A stretch of 64,000 bases of DNA from NCBI GenBank assembly GCA_027623205.1, contig JAQBYC010000002.1:7657-71656 (forward strand), read 5' to 3'. The stretch's first letter is position 1, and each line of letters starts with the position of its first letter. A program made the position numbers and the translations under genes. This stretch comes from Pseudomonadota bacterium (GTDB taxonomy: Bacteria > Pseudomonadota > Alphaproteobacteria > GCA-2731375). The notes under the pieces were generated by a model. It was given only the letters and a program-made list of their open reading frames with translations, did not search any database and was not told the DNA's origin. Shown in pieces: positions 6,155 to 58,113 of this stretch.

Positions 6155-6228
6155 GGTCGCGAACGCAGCACACGTAATTGCTCTATTCTGAACGTTCTGA
6201 GCACATTCGATCCGCCTGGGCTCTCTAG
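6155..6228 (+). repeat. Intergenic repeat family copy A (5'-shortened), + orientation
   Basis: The core ...gtcgcgaacgcagcacacgtaattgctctattctgaacgttctgagcacattcgatcc...ctctag matches copies B-G. Its 3' CTAG contains the ppdK stop codon. Confidence 0.6.
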
Positions 6229-8906
6229 CGCGAGGCTGAACCATCTGACAATTTCGCCACTGCTTGCGCCGCGGCAAGGCGGGCAATAGGCACCCGAAAG
6301 GGCGAGCAGGACACATAATCCAGGCCAATGGATTGGCAAAAGGCAATGGACGCAGGGTCGCCGCCGTGTTCGCCGCAGATACCCAGCTTTAAATCCGGGC
6401 GGGTCCTGCGTCCCCGCTTGGCCGCCAGCTCCACCAGTTCGCCGACGCCATCCCTGTCCAGTGTCGCGAACGGGTCGGCTTCCAGAATGCCCTTGCTCCG
6501 GTAGTCTGGCAGAAATCCGGCGGAATCATCACGACTGATGCCAAATACAGTCTGGGTCAGATCATTCGTTCCGAACGAGAAGAATTCAGCTGCTTCCGCA
6601 ATTTCTCCGGCCCGCAGGGCGGCCCGGGGCAATTCGATCATGGTGCCGATCAGATAATCCAGTTTGCCGCCCCGTTCGGCTGAAACCCGTTCGGCCACGG
6701 CGGCAATACGTTCCTGCAGGAAGACGAACTCCGCCTTGCTGGCGATCAGGGGGATCATGACCTCCGGCACCACCGCTTCGCCTTGCGCGGCACCGACGAT
6801 CGCGGCTGCCTCGAAGATGGCCCGGGCCTGCATCTCGTAAATTTCCGGATAGGAAATGCCCAGGCGGCAGCCGCGATGGCCCAACATCGGATTGTATTCA
6901 TGTAGCTGGTTGGCTCGATGGCGCAAATCCTCGACCGAGGTCCCCGTCACGGCGGCCAGTTGCGCCAGTTCACCGTCGGACTTCGGCAGGAATTCATGCA
7001 ACGGCGGATCCAATAACCGGATCGTCACCGGCAAGCCGGACATGATGGTGAACAGATCAATGAAATCCTGCCGCTGCATGGGCAGAATCTTGGCCAGGGC
7101 CGCTTGCCGGCCCGCGAGATCCTGGGCCAGAATCATTTCGCGCACAGCCAGAATACGCTCGGTATCGAAGAACATGTGCTCGGTGCGGCACAGTCCGATG
7201 CCTTCAGCGCCGAACCCAATCGCCGCCCTGGCATCCGCTGGCGTTTCGGCATTGGTGCGAACGCCAAGTTGGCGGATCTCGTCCGCCCAGCCCATCAGGG
7301 TGCCAAAGTCGCCGGACATTTCGGGCTGTATCGTCTTAACCTCGCCCAACATGACCTCACCGCTGCTGCCGTCAATAGTGATGACGTCGCCGGCGGCAAT
7401 AGTGATGTCGCCAATGTGCATCGTTTGCGTTTGGTAATCGATCCGCAATTGCCCGGCGCCTGATACACAGGGCCGGCCCATACCGCGGGCAACCACCGCC
7501 GCATGGCTGGTCATGCCGCCGCGTGAGGTCAGGATGCCGCGCGCCGCGTGCATCCCATGGATATCTTCCGGCGAGGTTTCGATCCGTACCAGCAGGATAT
7601 TCTCGCCAGCGTCCGCCAGGGTCACGGCCTGATCGGCGGTAAAGGCAACCTTGCCCGTGGCAGCGCCAGGAGACGCGGGCAAACCGCGGGTCATAACCTG
7701 CCGCATTGCGTTCGGATCCAAAGTGGGGTGCAATAATTGATCCAACGAATCCGGATCGACCCGGTTTATGGCTTCTTCTCGGCTCAACAGTCCTTCCTGC
7801 GCCATTTCCACGGCGATTTTTATCGCGGCACCGGCGGTGCGCTTGCCGGACCGGGTTTGCAGCATGTAAAGGCTGCCCCGCTGCACCGTGAACTCGATGT
7901 CCTGCATATCCCGATAATGGGCTTCCAGGCGTTGATAGATTGCTTCCAACTCGGCGAAAACCGCGGGCATCACCTCTTCCAGAGACGGCTTGTCATCATT
8001 GGCATTCTGGCGCGCGGCCTTGGTTAAATGCTGCGGCGTCCGGATTCCGGCAACCACATCTTCGCCCTGGGCATTGATCAGATACTCACCGAAAAAGCAT
8101 CTGTCGCCGGTGGAAGGATCGCGGGTGAAGGCAACACCCGTGGCCGAATCCTCGCCCATGTTGCCGAACACCATGGCCTGAATATTGACGGCCGTGCCCC
8201 AACTGGCCGGGATATCATGCAGGCGGCGATAGGTGACGGCGCGGGCATTCTGCCAGGACCCGAAAACGGCACCGATGGCGCCCCAGAGCTGGGCGTTCAC
8301 ATCCTGGGGGAAGGCTTCCGACCCTTCACTTTCCACCTTGGCCTTGAATTGATCGACCAGTTGACGCAGATCGTCCGCCGAAAGGGCGGTATCCAGTTGC
8401 AGGCCCAGGTTCTCTTTATGGACCTCCAACAATTCCTCAAAATGATAATGGTCAATACCCAGAACGACATCGGAGTACATTTGGATGAAGCGGCGATAGC
8501 TGTCCCAGGCAAAACGTTCATTGCCGCTTTGCCTGGCCAACGCCAAAACAGTGAGATCGTTCAGCCCCAGGTTCAACACCGTGTCCATCATGCCAGGCAT
8601 AGAGGCCCGGGCGCCGGAGCGGACGGAAACCAGCAACGGATTGTCATGATCGCCGAACTTTGCGCCCGCGAGCCTCTCCATTTCCGCCAGGGCGGCGGCG
8701 GCCTGATCCCGCAAGCCGCAGGGATAGGTTTCATCATTGTCATAATAGGCGGTGCAGACCTCGGTGGTCAGGGTAAAGCCAGGCGGCACCGGCAGGCCCA
8801 AGCTGGACATCTCGGCAAGATTGGCGCCCTTGCCACCCAGTAAATTCTTGTCAGCCGCGCTGCCATCGGCCCGGCCATCGCCAAAGCTGTAAACCCATTT
8901 CGTCAT
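6225..8906 (-). CDS. ppdK: Pyruvate, phosphate dikinase
   Basis: 893 aa. N-terminal ATP-grasp (GGKGANLAEM), central phospho-His domain (GGMTSHAAVVARGMG) and C-terminal PEP-utilising TIM barrel. Confidence 0.9.
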   Translation of the reverse strand: MTKWVYSFGDGRADGSAADKNLLGGKGANLAEMSSLGLPVPPGFTLTTEVCTAYYDNDETYPCGLRDQAAAALAEMERLAGAKFGDHDNPLLVSVRSGARASMPGMMDTVLNLGLNDLTVLALARQSGNERFAWDSYRRFIQMYSDVVLGIDHYHFEELLEVHKENLGLQLDTALSADDLRQLVDQFKAKVESEGSEAFPQDVNAQLWGAIGAVFGSWQNARAVTYRRLHDIPASWGTAVNIQAMVFGNMGEDSATGVAFTRDPSTGDRCFFGEYLINAQGEDVVAGIRTPQHLTKAARQNANDDKPSLEEVMPAVFAELEAIYQRLEAHYRDMQDIEFTVQRGSLYMLQTRSGKRTAGAAIKIAVEMAQEGLLSREEAINRVDPDSLDQLLHPTLDPNAMRQVMTRGLPASPGAATGKVAFTADQAVTLADAGENILLVRIETSPEDIHGMHAARGILTSRGGMTSHAAVVARGMGRPCVSGAGQLRIDYQTQTMHIGDITIAAGDVITIDGSSGEVMLGEVKTIQPEMSGDFGTLMGWADEIRQLGVRTNAETPADARAAIGFGAEGIGLCRTEHMFFDTERILAVREMILAQDLAGRQAALAKILPMQRQDFIDLFTIMSGLPVTIRLLDPPLHEFLPKSDGELAQLAAVTGTSVEDLRHRANQLHEYNPMLGHRGCRLGISYPEIYEMQARAIFEAAAIVGAAQGEAVVPEVMIPLIASKAEFVFLQERIAAVAERVSAERGGKLDYLIGTMIELPRAALRAGEIAEAAEFFSFGTNDLTQTVFGISRDDSAGFLPDYRSKGILEADPFATLDRDGVGELVELAAKRGRRTRPDLKLGICGEHGGDPASIAFCQSIGLDYVSCSPFRVPIARLAAAQAVAKLSDGSASR

Positions 8907-8911
8907 GGCAA

Positions 8912-10981: not shown

Positions 10982-10982
10982 G

Positions 10983-11909
10983 TCAGGCCCCCGACTCGCG
11001 CTTGGGCAGCTTGTCCGGGATCAATTCGCCCACGGCGGTCAGATAAGCGGTGGCGCAGGCCTTTGCCAATTCCCGCACCCGGCCAATATAGGCGGCCCTT
11101 TCGGTCACCGAGATCACCCCGCGGGCGTCCAGCAGATTGAACAGATGCGAGGCTTTTATGCACTGGTCATACGCGGGCAGGGGCAACCCAGCGGCGACCA
11201 GGGCAAGGCATTCCATCTCCGCATCGGCAAAATGGCGAAACAGCATGTCTGTATTGGCATGATTGAAGTTATAGGCCGAGAATTGCTGCTCCGCCGCCAG
11301 ATAGACATCGGCGTAGGATTTCGAACGCGCGTTGCCCGGCTCGTTCCAGGCCAGCTGCTGGAAGTGATCAACGCCCTGCACGTACATGGCCAGACGCTCC
11401 AGGCCATAGGTCAACTCACCGGAAACCGGGTCACAATCATAACCGCCGACCTGTTGGAAATAGGTGAACTGGCTAACCTCCATGCCGTCGCACCAGACCT
11501 CCCAGCCCAGGCCCCAGGCGCCCAGGGTCGGGCTTTCCCAATCATCTTCGACAAAACGAATGTCATGGATGGAGGCATCCAAACCAATCGCCGCCAGACT
11601 GCCGAGATAGAGATCCTGCAAATCGGAAGGTGATGGCTTCATGATCACCTGGAACTGGTAATAATGCTGCAAGCGGTTGGGGTTCTCGCCAAAGCGGCCA
11701 TCGGTCGGCCGGCGCGAAGGTTGTACATACGCGGCATTCCAGCTTTCGCTGCCCAGAGCGCGCAGCGTGGTGGCCCAATGGAAAGTGCCGGCGCCAACTT
11801 CCATATCATAGGGCTGCAGAATGACGCAGCCCTGCTCAGACCAGAAATGCTGCAGAGCGAGGATCAGACCTTGAAAGGTCTTGGGGTTAAAGTTCGGCGT
11901 GCCGGTCAT
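10983..11909 (-). CDS. glyQ: Glycine--tRNA ligase alpha subunit
   Basis: 308 aa. Highly conserved GlyQ sequence ([26 protein letters not shown]-like). Confidence 0.9.
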
Positions 11910-12024
11910 TGCGCAGGCTAGTCCGTGGAATCGTGGGTGCGGCTTGGTTTGCGGGCATGGGTTAACAGGTTCCCGTTCGGCGCAACCTAGTCGCCGCCCC
12001 GCGCATTGGCAATGCCTTCTAAAA

Positions 12025-12243
12025 TCAAACTGAGTAGGGGCAATCGGCGCGTTCGCAGCCAGGTGTATCGACCGCCACGAAATTGCCGCAGACCGCGCAT
12101 TGGCTCAGGTCCAGCGCCTCAATTTTCGTTGCGTCCGCGCTGGCTTCACCCGATTTCGTGGCCCGGCCGCGTAAGGTCTTGGAGACCACAATCACCAAGG
12201 CGGCCACGGCCAGGAACAGCAAAATTTTCGACAAACTAAGCAT
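12025..12243 (-). CDS. Small membrane protein with a C-terminal Cys4 zinc-ribbon-like motif (hypothetical)
   Basis: Internal ATG gives 72 aa. One TM helix ([14 protein letters not shown]), then CAVCG...C....CPY. Sits in a 437-bp gap the larger ORFs leave unexplained. Confidence 0.4.
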
Positions 12244-12310
12244 GGTGGCGCAGCTTACGGAATGAACTGGCGGCGTCAAGACAAAGGATTGATCGCCTGG
12301 CGCCTGGAAC

Positions 12311-12408
12311 ACATTTGATCCAAATGGGCTCGGACTCTTTAAGCATAAAGCAATTGAACCAATTACCTAAGACGCGAGAGCGACTCCGATTAGTTGAAAA
12401 TTGCTCTT
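12311..12408 (-). repeat. Intergenic repeat family copy F, full length, - orientation
   Basis: The reverse complement reads gcaagagcaattttcaactaatcggagtcgctctcgcgtcttaggtaattggttcaattgctttatgcttaaagagtccgagcccatttggatcaaatg, colinear with copy D. Confidence 0.65.
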
Positions 12409-12445
12409 GCGGCATGCTTGATGACGTAAATGACGGTCCTGCCAT

Positions 12446-14050
12446 TCAACGCCCGTCCTGAAGGATCATTTCCGCCGCTTTTTCCGCGATCATCACGACC
12501 GGGGAATTGGTGTTGCCAGAGGTGATGGTCGGCATGATGGAGGCATCAACAACCCGCAGGCCCGCGATGCCGTGCACGGCAAGCCGGTCATCGACCACCG
12601 CCTGGCTATCATGGCCCATGCGACAAGTACTGACGGGGTGGAAGATGGTGGTGGCCAAGTCCCCCGCGGTCTTGACAAGCTCGTCTTCGTCATCGCCGAC
12701 GGTTGGTCCTGGGCGAAACTCTTCCGGTTGGTAGGGGGCCAGGGCATCGGCGGCGCAAATTCTGCGAGTCAGACGGATCGCATCCGCAGCGACCGTGCGG
12801 TCGGCATCGACGGAGAGGTAGTTCGGTCGAATGTGGGGTTGGCGCTGGGGATCAGAGCTGGCGATATGGATGCTACCGCGGCTTTCCGGGCGCAAATTGC
12901 AAACCGAGGCAGTAAAGGCCTCGAAGGGATGCAGGGCCTCGCCCAGCTTGTCCGTACTCAAGGGTTGGACGTGATATTGCAGATTTGCGGTTTCCTTACC
13001 GGCGTCGCTTTTGGCGAAGGCGCCAAGCTGGCTCGGTGACATGGTCAGCGGGCCGGTGCGGAACAACGCATATTCCAGGCCCATGGCGGCACGCCCCAGC
13101 AAGCTGTTGGCGCGCAGGTTCAGGGTCCGGGTGTTTGAAACCTTGTAGACCAGGCGAATTTGCAAATGATCCTGCAAATTCTCTCCCACGCCTGGCAATT
13201 CGTGCCGCACCGGAATGCCGTGTTGTCGCAGCAATTGGCCCTGCCCTATCCCGGAAAGCTCCAACAACTGCGGCGAGGCGACGGCGCCGCCCGAAAGGAT
13301 AACGGCGCCCCGCGCCCGGGCCCCGGCCGGCGCGCCGTCGTAAATATATTCCAGCCCCGTGGCGCGGCCGTCTTCTATGACGATCCGCGTCGCCTGAGCA
13401 TGGGTCAGAACCTTCAGGTTTGACCGCTGCATGACTGGTTTCAAAAATGCCTTGGCCGCGCTCCATCGCACGCCGCGCCTTTGGTTGACCTGAAAATAGC
13501 CGCAGCCCTCGTTGTCGCCGCGATTGAAATCATCGGTTTTGGGAATGCCGACCTCGGCCGCCGCCTCGCGAAAGGCCGCCAGTATTTCCCAGGACAGCCG
13601 TTGCTCCTCCACCCGCCACTCGCCATCCGTCCCATGCATATCATCGGCGCCGGCGTAATAATCCTCGGTTTTGCGGAAATACGGCAGCACATCGTCCCAT
13701 GACCAGCCCGCATTACCCATCTGGCCCCATTGGTCATAGTCACGAGCCTGGCCACGCATATAGATCATGCCATTGATGGATGAACAGCCACCCAGGACCT
13801 TGCCGCGCGCATAGTCGATGGCGCGACCGTTCAGGCCCGCTTCGGCCTCCGTCTTGAAGCACCAGTCGGTGCGCGGATTGCCGAGGGTATAGAGGTAGCC
13901 GACGGGAATATGGATCCAGTGGTAGTTATCCTTGCCTCCCGCTTCCAACAGCAGCACCGAGTTTTTGGGATCGGCCGTAAGGCGGTTGGCCAATACGCAG
14001 CCGGCGGTGCCAGCGCCGACGATGATGTAATCGAAGCTGTCGATGGTCAT
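12446..14050 (-). CDS. GMC family FAD oxidoreductase (choline/alcohol dehydrogenase-like)
   Basis: N-terminal FAD fold DYIIVGAGTAGCVLANRL. GMC signature regions. 534 aa. Confidence 0.8.
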   Translation of the reverse strand: MTIDSFDYIIVGAGTAGCVLANRLTADPKNSVLLLEAGGKDNYHWIHIPVGYLYTLGNPRTDWCFKTEAEAGLNGRAIDYARGKVLGGCSSINGMIYMRGQARDYDQWGQMGNAGWSWDDVLPYFRKTEDYYAGADDMHGTDGEWRVEEQRLSWEILAAFREAAAEVGIPKTDDFNRGDNEGCGYFQVNQRRGVRWSAAKAFLKPVMQRSNLKVLTHAQATRIVIEDGRATGLEYIYDGAPAGARARGAVILSGGAVASPQLLELSGIGQGQLLRQHGIPVRHELPGVGENLQDHLQIRLVYKVSNTRTLNLRANSLLGRAAMGLEYALFRTGPLTMSPSQLGAFAKSDAGKETANLQYHVQPLSTDKLGEALHPFEAFTASVCNLRPESRGSIHIASSDPQRQPHIRPNYLSVDADRTVAADAIRLTRRICAADALAPYQPEEFRPGPTVGDDEDELVKTAGDLATTIFHPVSTCRMGHDSQAVVDDRLAVHGIAGLRVVDASIMPTITSGNTNSPVVMIAEKAAEMILQDGR

Positions 14051-14155: not shown

Positions 14156-18632
<4,477 letters not shown>

Positions 18633-24303: not shown

Positions 24304-24398
24304 TTAGAACGATTTTCAATTAAGTGGAGCCGCTAGTGCAACTTAGGCAATTGGTTCAATTTCTCTATTCTGAGAATTCCGACGGATTTGGCTCAAAT
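24304..24398 (+). repeat. Intergenic repeat family copy B, full length, + orientation
   Basis: ttagaacgattttcaattaagtggagccgctagtgcaacttaggcaattggttcaatttctctattctgagaattccgacggatttggctcaaat. The GST stop codon follows 6 bp later. Confidence 0.65.
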
Positions 24399-24403
24399 AT
24401 GCT

Positions 24404-25042
24404 CTACGCCACGCCTGCATCCGCCATCCAGGCCACCATATTGGGCAGTTGCAACAGCGCCTCCACATAGGCCCGGCAGGTATCATCCAGGGGCACGCTG
24501 TAGTGGTTGAAACGCACGGCCACGGGGGCAAACATGGCATCGGCGGCAGAGAATGGACCGAACAGGAAATCGCCCCGATTTTGGCAACTGCCCTGATGGA
24601 CCTGCCGTGCCTCACGCCAAATGTCTGTCATACGCTTCACGTCCGCCTTGGCCGCCATTGAAAGAGATGGCATGGGCACCCGCGCTTGACAGTTGAAGGA
24701 CAGTTCGTCCCGCAGGCTGGTAAATCCCGCATGCATCTCCGCCGCCAGGACGCGAGCACGGGCCCGCAGTGCCGCATCCCGCGGCCAAATCAGCAAGTCG
24801 GGATGATTTTCGGCAACGAATTCGATGATGGCGAGGCTCTCCCATATGGTCTGGTCCCGCGTCTGCAGGATTGGCACCCGGCCGCCCGGCGAATACGCCA
24901 AAATTTTATCCCGGGTGTCAGGTTGATCCAGATCCACCGTCACCAGCTCGAACGGCAGCTCAAATTGACGCAGTAGCAGCCAGACGCGCAAGGACCATGA
25001 TGACAGGTTCCTGTCGCCAATGATCAAACGATACGTCGGCAT
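24404..25042 (-). CDS. Glutathione S-transferase family protein
   Basis: Start at internal ATG (MPTYRLIIGDRNLSSWSLR), 212 aa. Thioredoxin-like N-domain plus helical C-domain. Confidence 0.8.
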   Translation of the reverse strand: MPTYRLIIGDRNLSSWSLRVWLLLRQFELPFELVTVDLDQPDTRDKILAYSPGGRVPILQTRDQTIWESLAIIEFVAENHPDLLIWPRDAALRARARVLAAEMHAGFTSLRDELSFNCQARVPMPSLSMAAKADVKRMTDIWREARQVHQGSCQNRGDFLFGPFSAADAMFAPVAVRFNHYSVPLDDTCRAYVEALLQLPNMVAWMADAGVA

Positions 25043-25138
25043 CCCGGCGCGCTGGCTCTTGTTGTAAAGAGGCGAGAATAAAGCCATAGCTGAAATTCAC
25101 CAATCCGGCCATACTTGGCGTGATTTGCCGTCGTGTAA

Positions 25139-27891: not shown

Positions 27892-28187
27892 CCACTTTGG
27901 CCGGCGGAGGCAGAGCTGTCTTGTCAGGTTATACGATCTCTCTATATGGTTTCTGCCTGATCGCCCGTGGTCATGGCGGCGACGGCCGGTCCTATTTTTC
28001 AGCGCGGAAAGCAGCCCCTTGAACCCCGAACCTCGTCCGCCCAAGTTAACCGCCTCGTCCGGCGCACCCCGTCCGTTCCACAGCCGCTCCAATTACCTTT
28101 TGCGTGGCGTCACGCAGCGACGGCCAGGGCCATAGATGCGCCCAACCTGCCCGGCTGTATTGGCGCGCAAGGCGCCCGCGTGACGGC

Positions 28188-29432
28188 ATGAACGGCACGC
28201 GCCCCGTTGCAACCATATCCGCGCTGGCGCCATTCGAGGTGCGCAGCTTTCGCTTTCAATGGCCGGCTGATCTGCTGACTTCGTGGGCCTTCGAGATGGA
28301 GACACTGATCCTTGGCTGGTATGTGCTGGTCCAGACGGAGTCAGTGCTCCTCCTGACGGTGTTCGGTTCTCTGCAATTCCTCGGCACCCTGATCGCGCCA
28401 ATGTTTGGCGTGGTTGCCGACCGGTTGGGACGGCGGACGGTGTTATGCGCTATGCGGGCGAGTTACGGGGTCCTCGCCCTGGCTGTGATGATCCTGGCTC
28501 TGACCGGATTGCTGACTCCCTATTTGGTACTGGGGATTGCCTTGCTGGCCGGCTTGGTGCGGCCCTCCGATCTGGTCATGCGGAATGCCCTGATCGGCGA
28601 TACGGTACCGGCAGCCTGGTTAGCCAAGGCCATCGGCCTCTCTCGCACGACCATGGATTCGGCCCGCATTGCCGGTGCCCTGGCCGGCGCGGGATTATTT
28701 TCCATCCTGGGCATCGGCCCCGCCTATCTTGCCGTCGTCACTTTATACGGCGTCAGCCTTGCCCTTACCTTTGGCGTCTCCCGGCCTGCCCGGTCTGACC
28801 CTTCAATCTCACCAAAAGCCCCTGCGCCCGCCTCGCCTTGGCAAGAATTGAAGGCAGGCTTTGTCTATATCCGGAACACGCCTGAAGTACTGGCGCTCAT
28901 GCTGTTGGCGTTTCTGGTCAATCTCACCGCCTATCCCGTCTCCATGGGGTTGCTGCCTTATGTGGCCAGGGAAATTTACGCCATTGACCAGAATGGCCTT
29001 GGCCATCTGGTGGCGGGATATGCGTCCGGCGCCCTGCTCGGTTCCATCGCCATGATCTTGCTCGGCGACGCCCGGCATCCGGGCCGGATCATGGTGCTTT
29101 GCATTGTGGCCTGGTATGTGCTGATCGCGATCTTTGCCCAACAAGGGGCGAAATGGCCGGGTTTTATGGCTTTGCTCGCCGTCGGCGTGGTGCAAAGCAT
29201 CGCCATGATCGCCATGTCGGTCACCTTGTTGCGCATCACGCCGGAGCGCTACCGCGCGCGAATCATGGGGGTGCGCATGTTAGCGGTCTATGGCCTGCCG
29301 CTGGGACTGCTGGGCGCCGGTGTCTTGGTCAATGGCACCGGGTTTCCCATCGCCGTCGGGGTCTACGCGCTGTTCGGCATTTTATGTACAGGCTGCATTG
29401 CCCTAGGATGGCGGACGGTTATCTGGCGATAG
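28188..29432 (+). CDS. MFS transporter
   Basis: 12 predicted hydrophobic segments. The ADRLGRR motif lies between TM2 and TM3. Starts at internal ATG (MNGTRP). Confidence 0.7.
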   Translation: MNGTRPVATISALAPFEVRSFRFQWPADLLTSWAFEMETLILGWYVLVQTESVLLLTVFGSLQFLGTLIAPMFGVVADRLGRRTVLCAMRASYGVLALAVMILALTGLLTPYLVLGIALLAGLVRPSDLVMRNALIGDTVPAAWLAKAIGLSRTTMDSARIAGALAGAGLFSILGIGPAYLAVVTLYGVSLALTFGVSRPARSDPSISPKAPAPASPWQELKAGFVYIRNTPEVLALMLLAFLVNLTAYPVSMGLLPYVAREIYAIDQNGLGHLVAGYASGALLGSIAMILLGDARHPGRIMVLCIVAWYVLIAIFAQQGAKWPGFMALLAVGVVQSIAMIAMSVTLLRITPERYRARIMGVRMLAVYGLPLGLLGAGVLVNGTGFPIAVGVYALFGILCTGCIALGWRTVIWR

Positions 29433-29454: not shown

Positions 29455-30696
29455 ATGCAGAAGAACGCCCTGGAAGTAGACGGAAACAGGCTCTGGGCAA
29501 CCTTGGAAGCCTCGGGTGAAATCGGCAAATTGCGTGATACTGGACTACGTCGTTTGCCGTTGTCCGATGCGGATAAGGAAATGCGCGATACCTTTTGCGC
29601 CTGGGCCCGGCAGGCTGGCTGCATCGTGACGGTGGACCAGGTCGGCAATATCTTTGCCCGGCGCGTCGGCACCGACGACAATCTGCCGGCGATTGCCACG
29701 GGCAGTCATTTGGATACCCAAATGTGCGGCGGCAAATATGACGGCGTACTTGGTGTCATGAGCGGCCTGGAAGTGATCCGCACCCTGAATGACCATGGCC
29801 TGCAGACCAAACGCCCCATCGAAATCGTCGTCTGGACCAACGAAGAAGGTGCCCGCTTTACGCCACCCATGCAAGGCTCTCTCGCCTTCGCGGGCGAACT
29901 TACCCTGGACGAGGTTTTAGCATCGACGGATGCGGACGGCTTGCGCTTTGGCGATGAACTGCGGCGCATCGGTTATGACGGCCCGACCGAGCTTGGCGGG
30001 AGAAAATTCGATTCCTATCTTGAACTGCATATCGAACAGGGGCCGATTTTGGACCGTATCGGCATCGACATCGGCATCGTCATCAGCGGCTTCAAGTCGC
30101 GAGGTTTGAAAATTGCCGTCACCGGCAACACGGCCCACGTGGGGCCGACGCCCATGGACCAGCGGCAAAACGCCCTGGTCGGCGCCGCCTATCTGATCAC
30201 GGAAGTCGACGCCATTGGCTGGCGGCATCATCCCCAGGGCGGCAAGACAACCACGCCGCAGATCAGCTGTTTCCCCAATTTGCCGGGTATAATCGCAGAA
30301 TCAGCGGCGCTTACCGTGGACTTTCGCCATCCCGACCCGGATGTGGCCGACCAGATGCTGGACGAGGTCAAAGCGGCGATGGTGACCGCGAGCGAAAAAG
30401 CCAATGTCAGCATGAAGATTGTGGAGAGCTGGGTGTTTGGAGACAATCCGTTTTCCAACGCCTGTATCCAATCCCTGGAAGAGACCGCCGATAGCATGGG
30501 TTTGGGCTATATGGAGATCCGTAGCCAGGCCGGTCACGATGCCTACGCGATCGGGAAGATCGCGCCCATGGGCATGATCTTCACCCCCTGCAATGGCGGG
30601 GTCAGCCACAATGTGGGAGAAAGCATAGAATTGGACAAAACCCTACCCGGCGTCAACCTGCTGCTCAACACGATGATCAAAATGGCCAACCGCTAG
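29455..30696 (+). CDS. M20-family allantoate amidohydrolase / N-carbamoyl-L-amino-acid hydrolase type Zn hydrolase
   Basis: ATG at 29455 follows GGGGAAAAAA. The N-terminal region and the GSHLDT metal-binding motif are typical of the AllC/AmaB/HyuC subfamily. Confidence 0.7.
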   Translation: MQKNALEVDGNRLWATLEASGEIGKLRDTGLRRLPLSDADKEMRDTFCAWARQAGCIVTVDQVGNIFARRVGTDDNLPAIATGSHLDTQMCGGKYDGVLGVMSGLEVIRTLNDHGLQTKRPIEIVVWTNEEGARFTPPMQGSLAFAGELTLDEVLASTDADGLRFGDELRRIGYDGPTELGGRKFDSYLELHIEQGPILDRIGIDIGIVISGFKSRGLKIAVTGNTAHVGPTPMDQRQNALVGAAYLITEVDAIGWRHHPQGGKTTTPQISCFPNLPGIIAESAALTVDFRHPDPDVADQMLDEVKAAMVTASEKANVSMKIVESWVFGDNPFSNACIQSLEETADSMGLGYMEIRSQAGHDAYAIGKIAPMGMIFTPCNGGVSHNVGESIELDKTLPGVNLLLNTMIKMANR

Positions 30697-31361: not shown

Positions 31362-31647
31362 TGCAAGTCCCTTCAATTCATAATTAGATCAGGGGCTCTC
31401 GATCTTAGCCGAGCCGCACCTTGTTGTTGATGCACGCGTTCCAAGCGTAGCTAGTTCGGATGCGCAAGCAGCGTAGCAAGATACGTCGAGGTGAGGTGCA
31501 ACGAGTGCACCTACATGGCACCGTCGGCGCGACGTTGCAAGCATAGATTTTGAAATTCGAAGACCGGTTACTGCGCCCGAAGACACGGCGGGCGGTCAGC
31601 GCCAAGCATCCAATCAGCATTCCTGACCGTCGCGGGCGGCGGGCGGC

Positions 31648-31720
31648 GGTCGACTTAAGCAATTGGTTCGATCGCTCTATTCTGACGATTCTGAGCACAT
31701 TTGGATCTCGTGTGTTCTAG
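31648..31720 (+). repeat. Intergenic repeat family copy C (5'-shortened), + orientation
   Basis: gtcgacttaagcaattggttcgatcgctctattctgacgattctgagcacatttggatctcgtgtgttctag. The terminal CTAG contains the ubiA stop. Lies inside the cspA upstream leader. Confidence 0.6.
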
Positions 31721-32652
31721 GCATGGCCCAGCAGGATACTTAAAAAGACAAGCCAGCCGAACCATGTGTTGGAGCGGAATTTGGCCAGACAATCCGCTGG
31801 ATCATTGATATTGACCTGGGCTGCCTGCCAAAACAATTGCAGGGCCGCCACGGCCAGACCAGCCAGGAACAGCGGCTGCAATTCCACCAACCATCCGGCT
31901 AATCCGAACAGGATGATTGCCGCACCGTAAAACAGCCACAACATCGGCCGGGTATGGGACCCGAGGCGCCGGGCCGAAGATTTGATGCCGATCAGGGCGT
32001 CGTCCACCTTGTCCTGATGGGCATAGATGGTGTCATAACCGAGGGTCCAGGCAATACCGCCCAGATACAACAGCACGGGCGCGGCGCCAAGGTCCCCGCG
32101 TACCGCGGCCCAACCCAACAACGCGCCCCAGTTAAAGGCCACGCCCAGGAAAATCTGGGGCCACCAGGTAATGCGCTTCATGAATGGATAGATAACGATG
32201 GGCGCCAAGGACATGACGCCGATTCCAATGGCGAAGGCGTTGAAACGCAGCAGTATATTCAGGCCGATCAGGGCCAGGAAGACCATGAATGCCGCGGCCT
32301 GACCGACGCTGATTTCGCCGCTGGGGATGGGCCGGCCACGGGTTCGTTCAACCTGACCATCATAGTCCCGGTCGGCGATATCGTTCCAGGCGCAACCCGC
32401 GCCCCGCATCGATAGGGCGCCAACGGCAAAACCCGCCAATAGCCATGGATCGGGCCAGCCGGGACTGGCCATGGCCAGTGACCACCAGCAGGGCCACAGC
32501 AACAGCCAGGTGCCGATGGGCCGGTCCAGTCGGGCCAGACGCAAATAAGGCCGCAAACGCATTGGCGCATAACGGGCGATCCAGCCGCTCGCTGGAATAT
32601 CAGTAAATGATCCGGGTGTTTCCCTGCGTGCCATCAGGCTAGAATACTGCAT
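31717..32652 (-). CDS. ubiA: 4-hydroxybenzoate polyprenyltransferase
   Basis: NDIADRDYD Asp-rich motif. Multiple TM helices. LRLARLDRPIGTWLLLWP N-terminal signature. The true start may be an internal ATG (32634 or 32562). Confidence 0.8.
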   Translation of the reverse strand: MQYSSLMARRETPGSFTDIPASGWIARYAPMRLRPYLRLARLDRPIGTWLLLWPCWWSLAMASPGWPDPWLLAGFAVGALSMRGAGCAWNDIADRDYDGQVERTRGRPIPSGEISVGQAAAFMVFLALIGLNILLRFNAFAIGIGVMSLAPIVIYPFMKRITWWPQIFLGVAFNWGALLGWAAVRGDLGAAPVLLYLGGIAWTLGYDTIYAHQDKVDDALIGIKSSARRLGSHTRPMLWLFYGAAIILFGLAGWLVELQPLFLAGLAVAALQLFWQAAQVNINDPADCLAKFRSNTWFGWLVFLSILLGHA

Positions 32653-34929: not shown

Positions 34930-35868
34930 ATGTCCACGCCGACCCTGCCAGCGACGTTCGCGGAAGCGTTCACTGTTCCCTCGACTGGCGCGGTGGAAAT
35001 TTGCGTCTATCGATTGCACGCAGCGCCCGGAGATGGCCCGGCCTTGATCTGGGCTCACGCCAACGGTTTCAACGCCGGCTGCTACCAGCCATTGCTGAAC
35101 CGGCTAAGTTGCCATTTTCAGGTTTTTGCCTTTGATGCCCGCGGTCATGGCGCCTCTGCCAAGCCGAGGGACAACATGGAGCACGACTATGCCCTGCTCC
35201 GATTTGCCGAAGACCTGGGCGCCATCGTGGCCCGGGTGCGGCAAATGATCGGCACGGCGACACCCCTGCATTTCGCTTCCCATTCCCTGGGCGGTCTGGC
35301 GGCCGTGCTATTGGAGGCGGAATTGGCCGAGGCGCCGTTTGACAGCCTGACCCTGTTCGAGCCGCCAATCTATCCACCGAGCGGTCACGCGGAACGGGCC
35401 GCCGCCTTGGCGCACGCACCGGCCTTTGTTCGCTGGGCCGCCGGACGGCGCAACAATTTTCCCGATCGCGGTGCCCTGCGCGCCGAGGTGGCGCGCATCA
35501 TTACCTATCGCCGTTTCGCCAACGACATGATGGCGGCCTATTTGGCGGCGGCGGTGGAACCCGCGCCAGACGGCGGCTTGGCCCTGCGCTGTCCCGGTGT
35601 CATCGAATCCGCTATTTATGCCAATTGTCCCGATAGCGGGATATTCGAGCGGACCGCCAAAGTGGCGACACGCACCCGCATCTATGCCACCGATCAGACG
35701 GTATTGCCCGACTTGCATTCCTGGGCGCCGGGGACCATGACTGCCATCGCCGCCAACATGCAAACGGCCGAGGCGCGCACCATGCCGGGCTGTTTGCATT
35801 TAATGGTCCAGGAAGACCCCGGCGCCTGCGCCGCCGCCGTCATCGAACACGCGTTGAGGCATACTTGA
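34930..35868 (+). CDS. Alpha/beta-fold hydrolase
   Basis: HSLGG nucleophile elbow. An HGxS-like oxyanion region. 312 aa. Confidence 0.65.
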   Translation: MSTPTLPATFAEAFTVPSTGAVEICVYRLHAAPGDGPALIWAHANGFNAGCYQPLLNRLSCHFQVFAFDARGHGASAKPRDNMEHDYALLRFAEDLGAIVARVRQMIGTATPLHFASHSLGGLAAVLLEAELAEAPFDSLTLFEPPIYPPSGHAERAAALAHAPAFVRWAAGRRNNFPDRGALRAEVARIITYRRFANDMMAAYLAAAVEPAPDGGLALRCPGVIESAIYANCPDSGIFERTAKVATRTRIYATDQTVLPDLHSWAPGTMTAIAANMQTAEARTMPGCLHLMVQEDPGACAAAVIEHALRHT

Positions 35869-35961
35869 TCCACATGTGCTCAAACCCCGCAAGAAAGAGA
35901 GCCTGAACCAATGACTTAAAGTCGTGTTGCGACTCCACCACCTAATTGGAAATCGCGCTAC
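35862..35961 (-). repeat. Intergenic repeat family copy G, full length but diverged, - orientation
   Basis: acttgatccacatgtgctcaaacccc...gcctgaaccaatgacttaaagtcgtgttgcgactccaccacctaattggaaatcgcgctac is the reverse-complement match to copies D and E. Its 3' end overlaps the TGA stop of the alpha/beta hydrolase gene. Confidence 0.55.
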
Positions 35962-41346: not shown

Positions 41347-41985
41347 ATGGCCCAGTTACGTTTCTGCCCCAAAGTCCCTTTGATAGCCCTATTTATCGCC
41401 ACCATGAGCATTTTCGTGCTGCTGGCAATGGCGCAAATAGGGCACGCCGGCAACTTGTCCCAACGGGCCGTCGGGACAATGACAAACTTTACCCCTTTGC
41501 CCAAACCGCTGCCAGTGCCGCATATAACCTTCCGTGACGGCAATGGCCAAACACGCGGCCTGACCGATTTTGCCGGTAAGGTTATTCTGGTCAATTTTTG
41601 GGCCACCTGGTGCGGCCCCTGTCGCCGCGAAATGTCGGATCTGGATAGGTTGCAAGCGCGCCTTGGCGGTCCGGAATTTGTCGTCGTGGCGCTTTCCTCC
41701 GACCGCGAGGGCCTGGAGGTGGTGCAGAAGTTCTTTCGGGAGAATAGTATTCAACATCTGGGCGCCTTCGTCGATAAGACCACCAAGGCACAGCGGGCTT
41801 TTGGCGTCTATGGCCTGCCGACTTCGGTACTGATTGATGCCAAGGGACGGGAAGTCGGCCGTCTGGTCGGGCCGGCGGCGTGGGACAGCGTCGATGCCCG
41901 CGCCCTGATCAACGAGGTCATCGCCAACAGCGGATCCGGGGGCGGCGCTACCAAAATTGGCGCGTCCACTAAATTGGCGCCGTAA
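41347..41985 (+). CDS. tlpA: Thiol:disulfide interchange protein TlpA-like (periplasmic thioredoxin)
   Basis: N-terminal TM anchor, then the WATWCGPCRREM active site. Divergent from argH. ATG at 41347; an alternative is 41404. Confidence 0.7.
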   Translation: MAQLRFCPKVPLIALFIATMSIFVLLAMAQIGHAGNLSQRAVGTMTNFTPLPKPLPVPHITFRDGNGQTRGLTDFAGKVILVNFWATWCGPCRREMSDLDRLQARLGGPEFVVVALSSDREGLEVVQKFFRENSIQHLGAFVDKTTKAQRAFGVYGLPTSVLIDAKGREVGRLVGPAAWDSVDARALINEVIANSGSGGGATKIGASTKLAP

Positions 41986-41987: not shown

Positions 41988-42092
41988 CTAGCGCAATCTT
42001 CAATTAAATTGAGTCGCGAACACGGCTCAAGTAATCCGTTCAATTGCTCTATTCTGAAAATTCCGAGCGCATTTGGATCAAATTTCTTCTTA
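41988..42092 (+). repeat. Intergenic repeat family copy D, full length, + orientation
   Basis: ctagcgcaatcttcaattaaattgagtcgcgaacacggctcaagtaatccgttcaattgctctattctgaaaattccgagcgcatttggatcaaatttcttcttag. Starts 2 bp after the tlpA stop codon. Flanked by CTAG...TTAG. Confidence 0.7.
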
Positions 42093-50218: not shown

Positions 50219-50345
50219 TCTGGCGGCATTTGACGCGGCATTAATGGGCGGCGGTGGCATTGCCCGGATTGTCTAACGGGATCGGGCCATTTATGATGCG
50301 CCGCACGAGATGCCGCGCCCACGCGGCGCTGGGGAGCCCACCTGA

Positions 50346-53977: not shown

Positions 53978-54014
53978 CCGCGGCATTAGAGTGCATTGAG
54001 AGTACAGACTAAGC

Positions 54015-54980
54015 ATGCAACCCGCCTATTCCGTCATTTTCCTGACCACCGCCACGGGCGCCGGTTACGGCCTGCTGGCCCTGCTGGGTGTTCTCCGCGC
54101 CATGGATAGCCTGCCGGACGAGCGCGCCTTTGGCCTGCTCGCCCTGGGTCTAGCCATGGCTTTGATCAGCGCCGGGCTGTTGGCCTCGGCGGCCCATCTC
54201 GGCCGCCCGGAGCGGGCCTGGCGGGCCTTCAGCCAATGGCGCTCCTCCTGGCTGTCCCGGGAAGGGGTTCTGGCCGTGGCCGGCTATGGCCCGGCAGCGC
54301 TGTTCGCCTTTGCCTGGTTAATTCTGCAACGCAACGACGGCCTTTGGCCCCTGGCCGGTCTGGCAGCGGCGGTGCTGTCCGTCGCCACCGTCTACAGCAC
54401 CGCCATGATCTATCGTTCCCTGGCCGCCATTCCCCGCTGGCATCATCCCCTGGTGCCATGGGTCTATCTGATCCTGGCGCTGGCCACGGGCGCCCTGTGG
54501 CTCAACGCGGTGCTGGCGTCCTTGGTCGGCGACCATGGTGGCCATGCCCTGGTGCGGGCGATTTGCTTCGCCGCCCTGGCCGCCGCCTGGTTGTTGAAGA
54601 TCGCCTATTGGCGCGCCATCGACGGCGCCACCGGCGAAAGCAGCACGGCCACCGCGATCGGGTTGGGCGGCCTGGACGGCCTGGGCCCGGTGCGCCCCCT
54701 GGATCCGCCCCATGTGCAGGACAATTATCTGCTGAAGGAAATGGGTTTCGCCATCGCCCGCAAGCACGCCGCCAAGCTGCGCCGCCTGACCCATCTGATG
54801 GCCTTCCTGGTGCCTCTGGTCTTGGTGGTGGTTCAGTCCGTCGCTTCCGGCCCCGTCAGCCTGTTGGCGGCGGCCCTGGCAGCCGTAACCGTCAGCTTCG
54901 GCGTCGTCGTTGAACGCTGGCTGTTCTTCGCCGAAGCCCAGCACAAGGTAATGCTGTACTACGGCACGGAGCGCATCTGA
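54015..54980 (+). CDS. soeC: DmsC/NrfD-like membrane anchor subunit, SoeC-like
   Basis: 321 aa. About 8 hydrophobic helices. Directly downstream of the FeS subunit. Confidence 0.55.
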   Translation: MQPAYSVIFLTTATGAGYGLLALLGVLRAMDSLPDERAFGLLALGLAMALISAGLLASAAHLGRPERAWRAFSQWRSSWLSREGVLAVAGYGPAALFAFAWLILQRNDGLWPLAGLAAAVLSVATVYSTAMIYRSLAAIPRWHHPLVPWVYLILALATGALWLNAVLASLVGDHGGHALVRAICFAALAAAWLLKIAYWRAIDGATGESSTATAIGLGGLDGLGPVRPLDPPHVQDNYLLKEMGFAIARKHAAKLRRLTHLMAFLVPLVLVVVQSVASGPVSLLAAALAAVTVSFGVVVERWLFFAEAQHKVMLYYGTERI

Positions 54981-55043
54981 CTCATTTCCGAACCGGCCGG
55001 AGCTGCCGGCGGGGCGGGCAACTCGGAACGCTTTTGCAATGGG

Positions 55044-56714
55044 TCAGAACAAGCCGGTGATCTGACCGTTTTCGTCCAGGCCGATGGTTTCCGCCGCCGG
55101 GCGGCTGGGCAGACCGGGCATGGTCATGATGTCGCCGCAGACCACGACCAGAAATTCGGCGCCCGCCGCCAGGCGGATTTCCCGGATCGAGACGACATGG
55201 CCCGAGGGCGCGCCCTTGCGGTTCGGATCGGTGGAAAAACTGTATTGCGTCTTGGCCACACAAATCGGCAGATGGCCATAGCCCTGATCCTGCAATTGCT
55301 GAAAACGCTCGCTCACCAGGCGGTCGGCGCTGATATCATCGGCGCCGTATATGCGCTGGGCGACGGTACGCATCTTCTCCCACAACGGCATCTCGTCGCC
55401 ATACAAGGTGTTGAAATCGGATTCACCGGCCTGCGCCAGCTCCGCCACGCGGAGCGCCAGTGCCTCGGCCCCAGCCCCGCCGTCGGACCAGTGGCTGCAA
55501 ACGAAAGCGTCCACATCAAAGCCCTTGCAGTAATCGGTAATCGCCGCCATTTCGTCCTTCGTGTCGGCATCGAAACGGTTGATGGCGACGACGGCACGCA
55601 TGCCGAATTGGCCAATATTTTCCAGATGCCGGCCCAGATTCTCCAGACCCCGCTGCAAGGCGGCGACATCTTCCCTGCCCAGGTCGTCCCGGGCCACGCC
55701 ACCATGCATCTTCAGGGCCCGGACCGTGGCCACCAGCACCACCGCGTCCGGCCGCAAGCCCGACTTGCGGCATTTGATATTGAAGAACTTCTCCGCCCCC
55801 AGGTCGGCACCGAAGCCGGCTTCGGTGACGACAAAATCGGCCATCTTCAAGGCTGCCCTGGTGGCGATCACGGAATTGCAGCCATGGGCGATGTTGGCGA
55901 AGGGTCCCCCGTGGATAAAGGCAGGATTGTTTTCCAGGGTTTGCGCCAGATTGGGCTGGATCGCGTCCTTCAACAACGCCGCCATGGCGCCGTCGGCATT
56001 TAGGTCCCGCGCCGTGACCAGGTCCCGGTCACGATTTTGCGCCACCACCATATTGCCCAGGCGGCGGCGTAGATCGTCGCTGTCCGAGGCCAGACAGAAC
56101 ACCGCCATCACTTCCGAAGCCACGGTAATGTCAAAGCCATCCTGGCGGGGAAAGCCGTTGGCCACGCCGCCCAGATTGGCCACGATGGAACGCAGGGCCC
56201 GGTCGTTCATGTCGACGACCCGGCGCCAGGAAATACGCCGGGCATCAATATCCAGCTTGTTGCCCCAGTAAATATGGTTGTCCAGCATGGCCGCCAGCAG
56301 GTTGTTGGCCGCGCCAATGGCATGGAAATCACCGGTGAAATGCAGGTTGATATCCTCCATGGGCACAACCTGGGCATAACCGCCGCCCGCCGCCCCGCCC
56401 TTGGTCCCGAAACACGGACCCAGGCTGGGTTCCCGCAAACAGATCGCAGTCTGCTTGCCGATCCGGTTCAGGGCATCGCCCAAGCCGACGGTGGTCGTCG
56501 TCTTGCCCTCGCCGGCCGGTGTCGGCGTGATGGCCGTGACCAGGATCAGTTTGCCCGTGGGCCGGTCCCCCAGAGAGGCTAGATAGTCCAGGTCCACCTT
56601 GGCCTTATCAGGGCCGTAGCGGTACAGATGCGTGGCGGGGATATTCAGTTTTTCGCCAATCTGTTCGATGGGCAAGGCGGTGGCTTGACGGGCGATTTCA
56701 ATATCTGGCTGCAT
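55044..56714 (-). CDS. fhs: Formate--tetrahydrofolate ligase
   Basis: 556 aa. [16 protein letters not shown]-loop and the conserved FTHFS signature regions. Confidence 0.9.
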
Positions 56715-56731
56715 TTTTGGATATCCCTAAT

Positions 56732-56836
56732 CTAGCGCAATTTCCAGTTAACTGGAGTCGCCCACACGACTTAAGTGATTGGTTCAATTGCGCATCCTGA
56801 AGGAGTCTGTGCACATTTGTATCAAATGTACACTAG
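56732..56836 (+). repeat. Intergenic repeat family copy E, full length, + orientation
   Basis: ctagcgcaatttccagttaactggagtcgcccacacgacttaagtgattggttcaattgcgcatcctgaaggagtctgtgcacatttgtatcaaatgtacactag. Flanked by CTAG...CTAG. The 3' CTAG contains the stop of the M20 peptidase gene. Lies 18 bp upstream of the fhs start. Confidence 0.7.
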
Positions 56837-58113
56837 ACTTTTTCCAGGCCACACCATTCCGCGATGAACAGCGCCATGGCCTGGGTATTCCGGCGCACTG
56901 ATTCCAAATTGACCCGTTCGTCAAAACCATGGATCGCATCGGATCGCGGACCATAGACCAGGCCAGGAATGCCTGCATAGAGTCCGAAAAATCGCGCATC
57001 GGTGGTTGCCGTGGTGGCATGCGACAGCAATGCCTGACCATAGGCCTCGCCGTGAGCCCAGCCCAGGGCCGCCTCCGCTTCGTCGGCACCTTGCAGGATA
57101 TAACCTTCGGCCAGAAAGCCGTTATAGACAATTTGCGGCGGCGCGTTGCGCAGAAAGGCGTCCTGGGACGCCGCCTGGCGGATGCAGTCTTCCAACTCCG
57201 CCTGCCGGGCCTGCAGATCGTCGCCGGGATAGATCGCCACGCGAAGATCGAAGACGCACCAGGACGGCACGGACGAAGCCCAATCACCGCCTTCGATTTT
57301 ACCGACGTTGAAATTGATCGGGTGATCATGGTCGGCATAATGGGGTTGATCGAACCGCTCGGCGTTCCACATTTTCTCCAGTTCCTTCAAACCCTGGATC
57401 AAAACAAAAGCCGCATCGATGGCGTTTGAGCCGGTGCCCGCATAGGCGACGTGGACGGGAATACCCTGAACCTTGATCTGCAGCCAGATTACGCCGATCT
57501 GGGCCCGGACCAGGCTGTCACCCATGGGTTCCGGGATCAACGCCGCCGCCGCCCGGTAACCCCGCGCCAAACAGGCCAGGGCACCATTGCCGGTGCATTC
57601 CTCTTCGACCACGGATTGCAGGAAGACATCCGCCGCAGGCCGCAGGCCAAGGGCCCGCAGGGCCCGCAGGGCATACATGGCGCCGACCAGTCCGGCTTTC
57701 ATATCGCCGGCGCCGCGGCCATACATCCAGCCGCCATCGATGCGCGGCTGGTACGGCGGCGAGGTCCACATCTCGTGCGGTCCCTCGGGCACCACATCGA
57801 TATGGCCGTTCAAGATCAGAGAGCGGCCCTTGGGGTTTTCGCAGCGGTGGCCACCGACCACGTTGAAGGCGTTGTCATAGTCCGTATAGACCGGCGAGAA
57901 GCCCGGCAGATGGCTGATCTGATCCACCTCGATCTGCCAACGATCGACGGCCAAACCCTGCGCGCGCATGGCCTGGGCCATGAAGTCCTGGGCGGTATGC
58001 TCCCGGCCCCGGCGCGACGGGAATTTTACCAGCTCGGCGGTAAAATCCACCTGCTCGTCAAAGCCGGCATCGACCGCATCCTTGATCTTCCCGGCAATAG
58101 CGCTTTCAAGCAT
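56833..58113 (-). CDS. M20 family metallopeptidase (ArgE/DapE/CPG2-like)
   Basis: Metal-ligand motifs HIDVV, GAGDMK and EEE. The dimerisation-domain pattern. Start at the internal ATG at 58113 (426 aa). The track ORF extends to 58194. Confidence 0.7.
   Translation of the reverse strand: MLESAIAGKIKDAVDAGFDEQVDFTAELVKFPSRRGREHTAQDFMAQAMRAQGLAVDRWQIEVDQISHLPGFSPVYTDYDNAFNVVGGHRCENPKGRSLILNGHIDVVPEGPHEMWTSPPYQPRIDGGWMYGRGAGDMKAGLVGAMYALRALRALGLRPAADVFLQSVVEEECTGNGALACLARGYRAAAALIPEPMGDSLVRAQIGVIWLQIKVQGIPVHVAYAGTGSNAIDAAFVLIQGLKELEKMWNAERFDQPHYADHDHPINFNVGKIEGGDWASSVPSWCVFDLRVAIYPGDDLQARQAELEDCIRQAASQDAFLRNAPPQIVYNGFLAEGYILQGADEAEAALGWAHGEAYGQALLSHATTATTDARFFGLYAGIPGLVYGPRSDAIHGFDERVNLESVRRNTQAMALFIAEWCGLEKV

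Follow-up and report, generated by a model that had tools for sequence, protein, structure and literature searches.

A ~105-nt MITE-like repeat in an alphaproteobacterial genome often has its edges on stop codons and probably duplicates TA within CTAG-type targets

We analyzed a stretch of 64,000 nt, hereafter the window, from a Pseudomonadota bacterium (Alphaproteobacteria, GCA-2731375; assembly GCA_027623205.1, contig JAQBYC010000002.1, forward-strand positions 7,657 to 71,656). The window has a GC content of 60% and belongs to a metagenome-assembled genome (ENA ERZ23495043, SRR2027830) with about 6% noncoding DNA and strong depletion of CTAG. Seven copies (A to G) of an AT-rich repeat of ~105 nt are dispersed along it, and the edges of many copies, in the window and beyond, coincide with the stop codons of neighboring genes. 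[quoted passage not shown]

Results

The seven copies were identified by repeat search and alignment, and an nhmmer profile of the element scored them with E-values of 1e-31 to 5e-21; the profile found no other match in the window. Their consensus is (TA)GAGCAATTTTCAATTAAgTGGAGTCGCgaaCGCGACTTAAGTAATTGGTTCAATTGCTCTATTCTGAAGATTCTGAGCACATTTGGATCAAATGTGCTC(TA), and the coordinates given here for copies A to G include the flanking TA. Many copies are old and decayed, with a mean column identity of 64%. The element is multicopy and dispersed, contains no transposase open reading frame (ORF), and lies within the size range of MITEs (<400 bp).

In four of the seven window copies, the same element position serves as the stop codon of an adjacent gene. 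The decayed copy A (6133–6227, plus strand), which is missing 9 nt of the left-hand palindrome (module I, described below), occupies the entire gap between two convergent genes: its 5′ TAG (6133–6135, plus strand) is the stop of an OmpR-type regulator gene (5407–6135, plus strand), and its 3′ CTA (6225–6227) is the stop of ppdK (6225–8906, minus strand). Copy B (24304–24406, plus strand; flanks T-TA and TA-C) ends with a CTA at 24404–24406, within CTAC, that is the stop of a GST gene (24404–25087, minus strand). Copy C (31651–31719, plus strand) is truncated at its 5′ end and retains the 3′ half of module I, the linker, and module II; its 3′ CTA (31717–31719) is the stop of ubiA (31717–32652, minus strand). 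The 3′ CTA (56833–56835) of copy E (56733–56835, plus strand; flanks C-TA and TA-G) is the stop of a gene for an ArgE/DapE (M20) deacylase (56833–58194, minus strand), and at its 5′ end this copy is 18 nt upstream of the start (56714) of the gene at 55044–56714 (minus strand). The identities of pyruvate phosphate dikinase, GST, UbiA, and the ArgE/DapE M20 deacylase were confirmed with NCBIfam.

Copy D (41989–42092, plus strand; flanks C-TA and TA-G) begins 3 nt past the TAA (41983–41985) of a tlpA-like ORF, its CTAG lying 2 nt past that codon, and the ATG (42107) of a PhyH-family gene follows 14 nt downstream of the element. Copy F (12305–12408, minus strand) is intergenic, has the mutated flanks AA and CA, and touches no stop, being located 36 nt past the TGA of a GMC oxidoreductase gene (12446–14050, minus strand). 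Copy G (35854–35960, minus strand) is decayed, the TA of its 3′ flank now being AA; an alpha/beta hydrolase gene (34930–35868, plus strand) enters its 3′ end, and the TGA of this gene (35866–35868) lies 10–12 nt inside the element. A probable decayed ortholog of copy G is found in the related locus L021 (score 38 versus 22 ± 4 for shuffled sequences).

These coordinates bear out all of the stop-codon boundaries proposed in a first-pass annotation of this DNA. It had placed the stops of ppdK, ubiA, and the M20 gene on the 3′-terminal CTAG of copies A, C, and E, which the ORF coordinates confirm, and the positions given for the GST stop in the CTAC of copy B, for copy D 2 bp after the tlpA TAA, and for the hydrolase TGA in copy G are equally correct, as are the flanking tetramers CTAG/CTAG of copy E, CTAG/TTAG of copy D, and TTAG/CTAC of copy B. 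The regulator gene's use of the copy A 5′ TAG as its stop had gone unnoticed there. A constant spacer of 9–11 nt between a conserved GATC and the element end was also claimed. The distance is 9–10 nt in copies C and D and in the consensus, but 12 nt in copy A, and copies B and E have no exact GATC; this spacing is simply the 3′ arm of the terminal 25-nt palindrome.

Relatives were found through homolog searches with ppdK and gshA followed by contig look-ups, which gave syntenic loci from three related lineages with protein identities of 88–93%. Extension of the genome itself by ~16 kb past the window (L026 and L028) added three copies, all three touching a stop codon: L028 11300–11406 (plus strand), whose 3′ CTA is the stop of a DsbA-family gene; L028 7696–7806 (minus strand), whose 5′ TAG is the stop of a flavin-reductase gene; and L026 ~5964–6031 (minus strand), whose 5′ TAG is the stop of a YjgF-family gene. 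In all, ~80 kb of this single genome hold 10 copies. Pattern scans of genome and metagenome contigs with the element core provided three further real copies (L003 and L005/L008). Subfamilies of the element are present in two related lineages of metagenome-assembled genomes. In the Black Sea lineage (L017 and L022), diverged subfamilies occur at the stop of a PBP gene (L017; flanks CTAG/CTAG), at the stop of an MFS gene (L022; A-TA-G ... C-TA-G), at the stop of an M20 gene, which is now TAA through a change of the element's first G to A, and in the GMC spacer, where the insertion point in L017 differs from that of copy F and L013 is empty.

Some sequences resembling the element were set aside. 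An apparent 62-nt size class consisting of module I only (L026 and L022-2) was dropped, as the sequence downstream is still linker-like and these are 3′-decayed full copies. The match of a suspected element remnant past the TAG at window position 30694 was not significant. Just downstream of copy F lies a conserved small gene (12025–12267, 72–91 amino acids) that has equivalents in L013 and L017, no Pfam hit, and a promoter-like TTGACG-N17-TAAGCT motif; the window and L017 insertions are not equally far upstream of this motif, which suggests independent hits in one spacer.

Six loci (response regulator/ppdK, PBP, MFS, YjgF, tlpA/PhyH, and GMC) differ between genomes in whether they carry the element. 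Four sites occupied in other genomes are, when empty, a single CTAG, ATAG, or TTAG tetramer in which the TAG is the stop of the gene, and at the PBP, MFS, tlpA/PhyH, and YjgF loci the TA (or TAG) is found once in empty and twice in filled sites. The PBP site is empty in the window (14156–14159, CCG-CTAG-C), where a single CTAG includes the TAG that terminates the PBP gene (14156–16189, minus strand); L013 has TTAG, and L017 carries CTAG-element-CTAG at the exact same site. The MFS site, likewise empty in the window, is an ATAG (29429–29432) that contains the TAG stop of the MFS gene (28104–29432, plus strand) and reads GCGA-TAG-ACGATT; when filled, in L022, it becomes GCGA-TA-[GAGCAA...TGCCC]-TA-GACGATT. 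The YjgF stop is empty in L030 (GGTA-TAG) and L013 (GGTT-TAG) and filled in the genome of the window (GGAA-TA-[GCGCAA...), and the tlpA/PhyH spacer is empty in L021 (...GTTCCGGTGGAG, junction ATTGGCGCCGTAGTTCCGGTGGAGTGG) and reads ...ATTC-TA-[element]-TA-GTGGAG in the window. No relative of the GST was close enough (75% identity or less) in a homolog search to yield an empty site for copy B.

At the response regulator/ppdK locus, the element is absent from L013, L014, and L017, in which the ppdK TGA is followed by 9 nt and the regulator TAA. In the closest relative, L030 (9339–9342), ppdK and the response regulator gene overlap by 4 nt, and both stops are provided by one palindromic CTAG (AAC-TAG-AGC). 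The next 9 nt in L030 (GAGCATTTC) resemble an element terminus, a nonsignificant match that could be a deletion remnant or chance. Excising copy A together with one TA from the window sequence gives GAT-TA-GCG, with TAG as the stop of the regulator gene and TAA (reverse complement TTA) as that of ppdK; with copy A inserted, each gene retains a TAG composed of the duplicated TA and the terminal G or C of the element.

Junctions were counted in 16 independent copies from the window, the flanks in its own genome, and the relatives. A stop codon forms a boundary in 10 of these 16 copies and in 7 of the 10 from the window's own genome. The 10 copies have 11 stop boundaries, six at the 5′ end, belonging to co-directional genes, and five at the 3′ end, belonging to convergent genes, with copy A contributing one of each. 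Outside coding sequence and elements, the window contains 144 intergenic TAs and 29 within stop codons; the corresponding numbers are 53 and 18 for TAG/CTA and 13 and 9 for CTAG, a tetramer that is ~5-fold depleted overall (41 observed versus ~230 expected). If any TA were a target, the expected fraction at stops would be 0.17, with P = 3e-4 for at least 7 of 10 copies and P = 6e-5 for at least 10 of 16. If any TAG/CTA were a target (expected fraction 0.25), these values would be 0.0035 and 0.0016, and with CTAG as the only target (0.41) they would be 0.06 and 0.07, so that the observed counts are compatible with this last model. The stop junctions are not chance, and a CTAG/YTAG preference together with purifying selection accounts for most of the stop pattern. 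The suggestion in the first-pass annotation that (C/T)TAG targets often sit at stop codons in a compact genome is upheld by the empty-site tetramers and by the 9 of 22 noncoding CTAGs (~40%) that are located at stops. Among the 53 stop codons of the window there are 17 TAG, 24 TGA, and 12 TAA, a TAG share that is high for a 60% GC genome; 5 of the 17 TAG stops are at element boundaries, and 6 more are in CTAG.

The size of the target duplication was assessed from the flanks. The left TA is preceded by different bases (C in 8, T in 3, A in 2, and G in 1 of 14 copies). An inner G follows this TA in 14 of 15 copies, and a C precedes the right TA in 12 of 14, whatever the left outer base is; the right TA is itself followed by G in 12 of 14. 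As a result, the flanks (N-TA-N) are CTAG in about half of the copies, with TTAG, ATAG, TTAC, and GTAC also represented. Only 3 of 13 copies have two identical flanking tetramers, and the first position of the pair is mismatched in 6 of 13, compared with 2–4 of 13 at the remaining positions. The clearest case is copy L022-1, in which the empty ATAG became ATAG...CTAG. The short terminal inverted repeat, GRGCAnnTTT, also takes in the terminal G. Since the right-hand C is independent of the variable left outer base, we read the duplication as TA: the inner G and C fit better as part of the element, with a duplication of TA, possibly TAG, and the 4-bp duplication that had been proposed in the first-pass annotation is disfavored.

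The element consists of two palindromes. Module I is a palindrome of ~62 nt (GAGCAATT...AATTGCTC), with the left terminus and ...CAATTGCTC as its outer arms; it is joined by a linker of 13 nt to module II, a 25-nt terminal palindrome (GAGCACATTTGgatCAAATGTGCTC) that reaches the right terminus. Well-preserved copies fold into these two independent palindromes with z = -5 to -7, and our first reading of the element as four local stems was dropped on this ground. The two ends share only the short imperfect inverted repeat mentioned above (~8 of 10 positions), each end being the outer arm of an internal palindrome. When the structures were supplied by hand to a 13-copy alignment, 79% of the cells paired, compared with 32–42% with slid partners, and compensatory changes between subfamilies occurred in 6 of the 11 pairs of module II; RNAalifold predicted no structure on the MAFFT alignment. 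Inverted repeats that a transposase recognizes are expected to covary in this way, and no RNA function need be invoked. Rfam returned no match for the whole window at gathering thresholds, nor for copy E at E ≤ 1, and no promoter- or terminator-like hit overlapped copy D or E.

The element is rich in GANTC, the CcrM site: the 16 copies contain 18 of these sites versus 6.3 expected (0 of 2000 shuffles), with at least one in 11 of the 16. They occupy two conserved element positions, ~24–29 and ~72–78, with a variable center (GAGTC, GAATC, or GATTC). GANTC is ~8-fold denser in the element (18 in 1.7 kb) than in the window (1.3 per kb). In 7 of the 16 copies, for instance at 56733–56835, one reading frame of ~34 codons (LAQFSIKWSREHDLSNWFNCSILKILSTFGSNVL*) runs uninterrupted through the element to the terminal TAG. 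Loss of the stop of an adjacent gene could thus add a tail of ~34 amino acids to its product, and copy C is part of a 56-codon ORF (31550–31720). We rejected a coding role for this frame, which is broken by stops or frameshifts in 9 of the 16 copies.

Insertions had further been proposed to remodel the C termini of adjoining proteins. This holds only as a secondary effect, for the hydrolase and the tail of ppdK, and not for the M20 deacylase, UbiA, and GST, whose C termini are canonical. The M20 deacylase (NF005306) and UbiA fit their NCBIfam models up to the final residue, the UbiA end (..LLGHA) is identical in L024, and the GST terminates at the same point as its 73% homolog. The hydrolase ends in ..HALRHT, compared with ..HALG or ..HALGRI in relatives, a gain of three residues (R-H-T); because the flanking TA of copy G is now TT, the gene reads three codons into the element, to an internal TGA. 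PpdK has eight extra residues (LSDGSASR) relative to the ..AVAK of 91% relatives, and this tail ends at the TAG of the element; the tail is 11 residues long in L030. The extension derives from loss of the ancestral TGA, with the element or the shared CTAG only providing the next stop. C-terminal remodeling is a minor, secondary consequence. The tlpA-like ORF runs ~15 codons beyond the stop of its L021/L025 orthologs (..AGSES*; window 41940–41985) and ends at a TAA that is intergenic in L021/L025, an extension unrelated to the element.

Other mobile elements of the relatives have comparable junctions. In L024, a full IS630-family insertion sequence (IS; NF033545, 238 bits; 11369–12870) lies within the TA of the TAG stop (CTAG) of gshA. 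The same site is empty in L025 (11365–11368, CCTAC-TAG-CCC); the IS in L024 is accompanied by a TA duplication and has G...C ends, and its terminal G remakes the TAG. The glutamate-cysteine ligase encoded by gshA in L024 is still 455 amino acids long despite the IS. Also present in the relatives are an IS of the IS5 family and a MITE of 270 bp that has GAGCG... ends and C-TA-G flanks. Given these elements, insertion at TA in CTAG is common in this clade. Copies of the ~270-bp MITE are located at L025 12054–12316 and 19480–19755, with 34-nt inverted repeats (GAGCGGTTCCGGGTTATTCTGACCCATTTGA) and flanks C-TA/TG-G, and at L022 8115–8151 a remnant supplies the final codons of MatE, which overlaps ubiA at CTAA. 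The IS5-family IS (L025 12317–13160) has two ORFs with a probable frameshift and, together with the 270-bp MITE, disrupts an alpha/beta hydrolase gene; this gene is intact in the window, where it abuts copy G. An IS1595-family transposase gene is present at 2465–3521 in L024/L025. BLAST searches of plasmids with the element and with the 270-bp MITE returned nothing useful.

Discussion

We propose the following route by which the element would come to lie at stop codons. A DDE transposase acting in trans, presumably of the IS630 type or the IS5/IS427 type, would insert it at a TA, preferably in CTAG or YTAG, and duplicate the TA. With the terminal G and C, as can be read directly from the junctions, each insertion yields TA-G on the left and C-TA on the right, that is, one inward TAG per strand. 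Owing to these end bases, a stop codon TAA or TAG whose TA is entered leaves the protein unchanged, and of two convergent genes sharing one (C/T)TAG each retains a stop. Stop codons would form a large share of the tolerated targets, and purifying selection would remove other insertions, so that surviving copies of both orientations come to have their edges on stop codons. Where a flanking TA later decays or an upstream stop is lost, translation of a few genes may then extend to the element or into it, as in the hydrolase and ppdK.

Several points weigh against this interpretation. The sample consists of 16 copies rather than a genome-wide census, and many copies are old and decayed, with some flanks mutated. 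Neither ~0.45 Mb of retrieved DNA nor the PLSDB plasmids yielded an autonomous element whose ends match, and for this reason we only infer the family of the transposase. With G following the right TA in 12 of 14 copies, a TA duplication is formally inseparable from a 3-bp duplication of TAG. Finally, relative to the TAG/CTA null, stops are still enriched ~2.5-fold (P = 0.002–0.004); plausibly, selection against promoter-side insertions, or a benefit at gene ends, adds to the target preference.

Two alternative transposition mechanisms can be considered. An IS5-type MITE with a true 4-bp CTAG/YTAR duplication would resemble MITEPsy1 of Pseudomonas syringae, a 100-nt IS5-derived MITE with a 4-nt CTAG/YTAA duplication (PMC3189936), and it would suit both the presence of an IS5-family transposase in the relatives and the CTAG/CTAG flanks of copies E, L017a, and L017b. 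We consider it improbable, as the first tetramer positions disagree in 6 of 13 copies, the right tetramer begins with C regardless of the left one, the empty ATAG of L022-1 gave ATAG...CTAG, and the IS5-family copy in L025 itself has a 2-bp (CA/TA) flank. A single-strand HUH element of the IS200/IS605 or PATE kind, inserting 3′ of TAG with its own terminal CTAG and no duplication, would use the hairpins as recognition structures, which is compatible with two conserved palindromic modules with compensatory changes, G-T pairs that favor one strand, a G that nearly always follows the right TA, and short terminal inverted repeats. The covariation of the arms is equally expected for inverted repeats recognized as double-stranded DNA, the first and last bases, G and C, belong to the inverted repeat with TA on both sides, and the copies of one genome show no strand bias (six plus, four minus). 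Moreover, no sequence separates the right-hand hairpin from the junction, in contrast to IS608-type ends, and no TnpA/RAYT (Y1) gene was seen in the retrieved loci, leaving this mechanism a similarly slim chance.

The position of the copies could instead reflect selection for a function, as a terminator, as a protector of mRNA 3′ ends like REP/ERIC, or in the delivery of CcrM (GANTC) sites. Strong hairpins do follow directly after TAG on both strands in well-preserved copies (z = -5 to -7), GANTC is enriched, CIR elements have conserved GANTC sites (PMC2229807), and stops remain in excess over the TAG/CTA null. The empty sites show, however, that the TAG/CTAG predates the insertion and that location is set at that moment. 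Gene ends hold both orientations, copies D and E also lie 14–18 nt upstream of start codons, there is no U-tract, no terminator- or promoter-like hit at D or E, and no Rfam match, and copies A, C, G, and J decay freely; we therefore judge a selected function unlikely. Chance adjacency, in which a 105-nt repeat in intergenic gaps of 110–120 nt necessarily abuts genes, would fit the short gaps and explains why copy D lies 3 nt from a stop, which is only through a small gap. It is effectively refuted by the exact register, with the stop on the same element nucleotides at 11 boundaries in 10 copies (P = 6e-5 to 0.002 under the TA and TAG nulls) and with a TAG stop already at the junction in the empty sites, and its probability is negligible.

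Insertion at TA with restored stops, our preferred account, would offer a nucleotide-level reason why small bacterial transposons often overlap gene 3′ ends, a pattern described in Coxiella and elsewhere with no cause given, and would illustrate how a mobile element can spread without protein damage in a genome nearly devoid of intergenic DNA. By-products for annotation near such repeats would be adjoining TAG stops, C-terminal additions a few residues long, and "hypothetical" ORFs that cross the repeat. We also put forward, tentatively and as doubtful in its entirety, that the G...C termini are an adaptation that makes insertions at amber or ochre stops silent, also in a (C/T)TAG shared by convergent overlapping genes, with stops as the main safe harbor in a streamlined genome, and that the element may be of the CIR/Bru-RS type. 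If it were of that type, the loci seen here both filled and empty would give the first direct evidence of transposition with TA duplication for this class, which is widespread in alphaproteobacteria, and if the link were true the mobilization of that repeat class would be settled.

The element shares insertion at TA, with duplication of the TA, with IS630/Tc1-mariner elements and their MITEs (IS630, ISY100, and RUP). IS630 is described as preferring the TA inside CTAG (Tenzen & Ohtsubo 1991, as cited in PMC2170065), and RUP of S. pneumoniae is a 107-bp MITE with TA targets (PMC2229807). The ends of the element (GAGCAATTTTCAATTAA...) are unrelated to those of the IS630-family IS in L024 (GTGGCTCCACACAGAGG), the only one of this family recovered, and its body consists of two palindromes rather than a single long stem. 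With the IS427 group of the IS5 family (IS711) and with MITEPsy1, the element has the YTAR/CTAG target in common. IS711 of Brucella duplicates the TA of YTAR (PMC2266754), in contrast to MITEPsy1, which duplicates 4 nt and has GGAAGGT ends.

Gene 3′ ends are also overlapped, by 1–50 bp, by the ends of QMITE1/QMITE2 of Coxiella burnetii and of the Correia (NEMIS) elements of Neisseria, the latter having TA targets as here; for the QMITEs the reason for the overlap is given as unknown (PMC5896051). Both differ in sequence and host from our element, in which the overlap would be explained by the TA and the terminal G/C. Further parallels are the CcrM-associated intergenic repeats (CIR) of Caulobacter and other alphaproteobacteria and Bru-RS1/Bru-RS2 of Brucella, whose description fits the element in the alphaproteobacterial host, a length of ~103–110 bp, two independently folding inverted-repeat arms with a linker, TA termini, conserved GANTC, and an intergenic location. 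CIR of Caulobacter/Brucella is ~110 bp long, with two arms and a linker, TA termini, and a conserved GANTC (PMC2229807); that review gives its target duplication as unknown and its mobility as unresolved, and does not mention stop codons. Rfam contains no CIR or Bru-RS family. The ~105-bp Bru-RS repeats are associated with IS711 (PMC2266754, PMC10800456), that is, with an IS that targets YTAR/TA. Taken together, the element probably belongs to a known type, the TA/CTAG-targeting MITEs, and is probably CIR-like, with no new mechanism involved.

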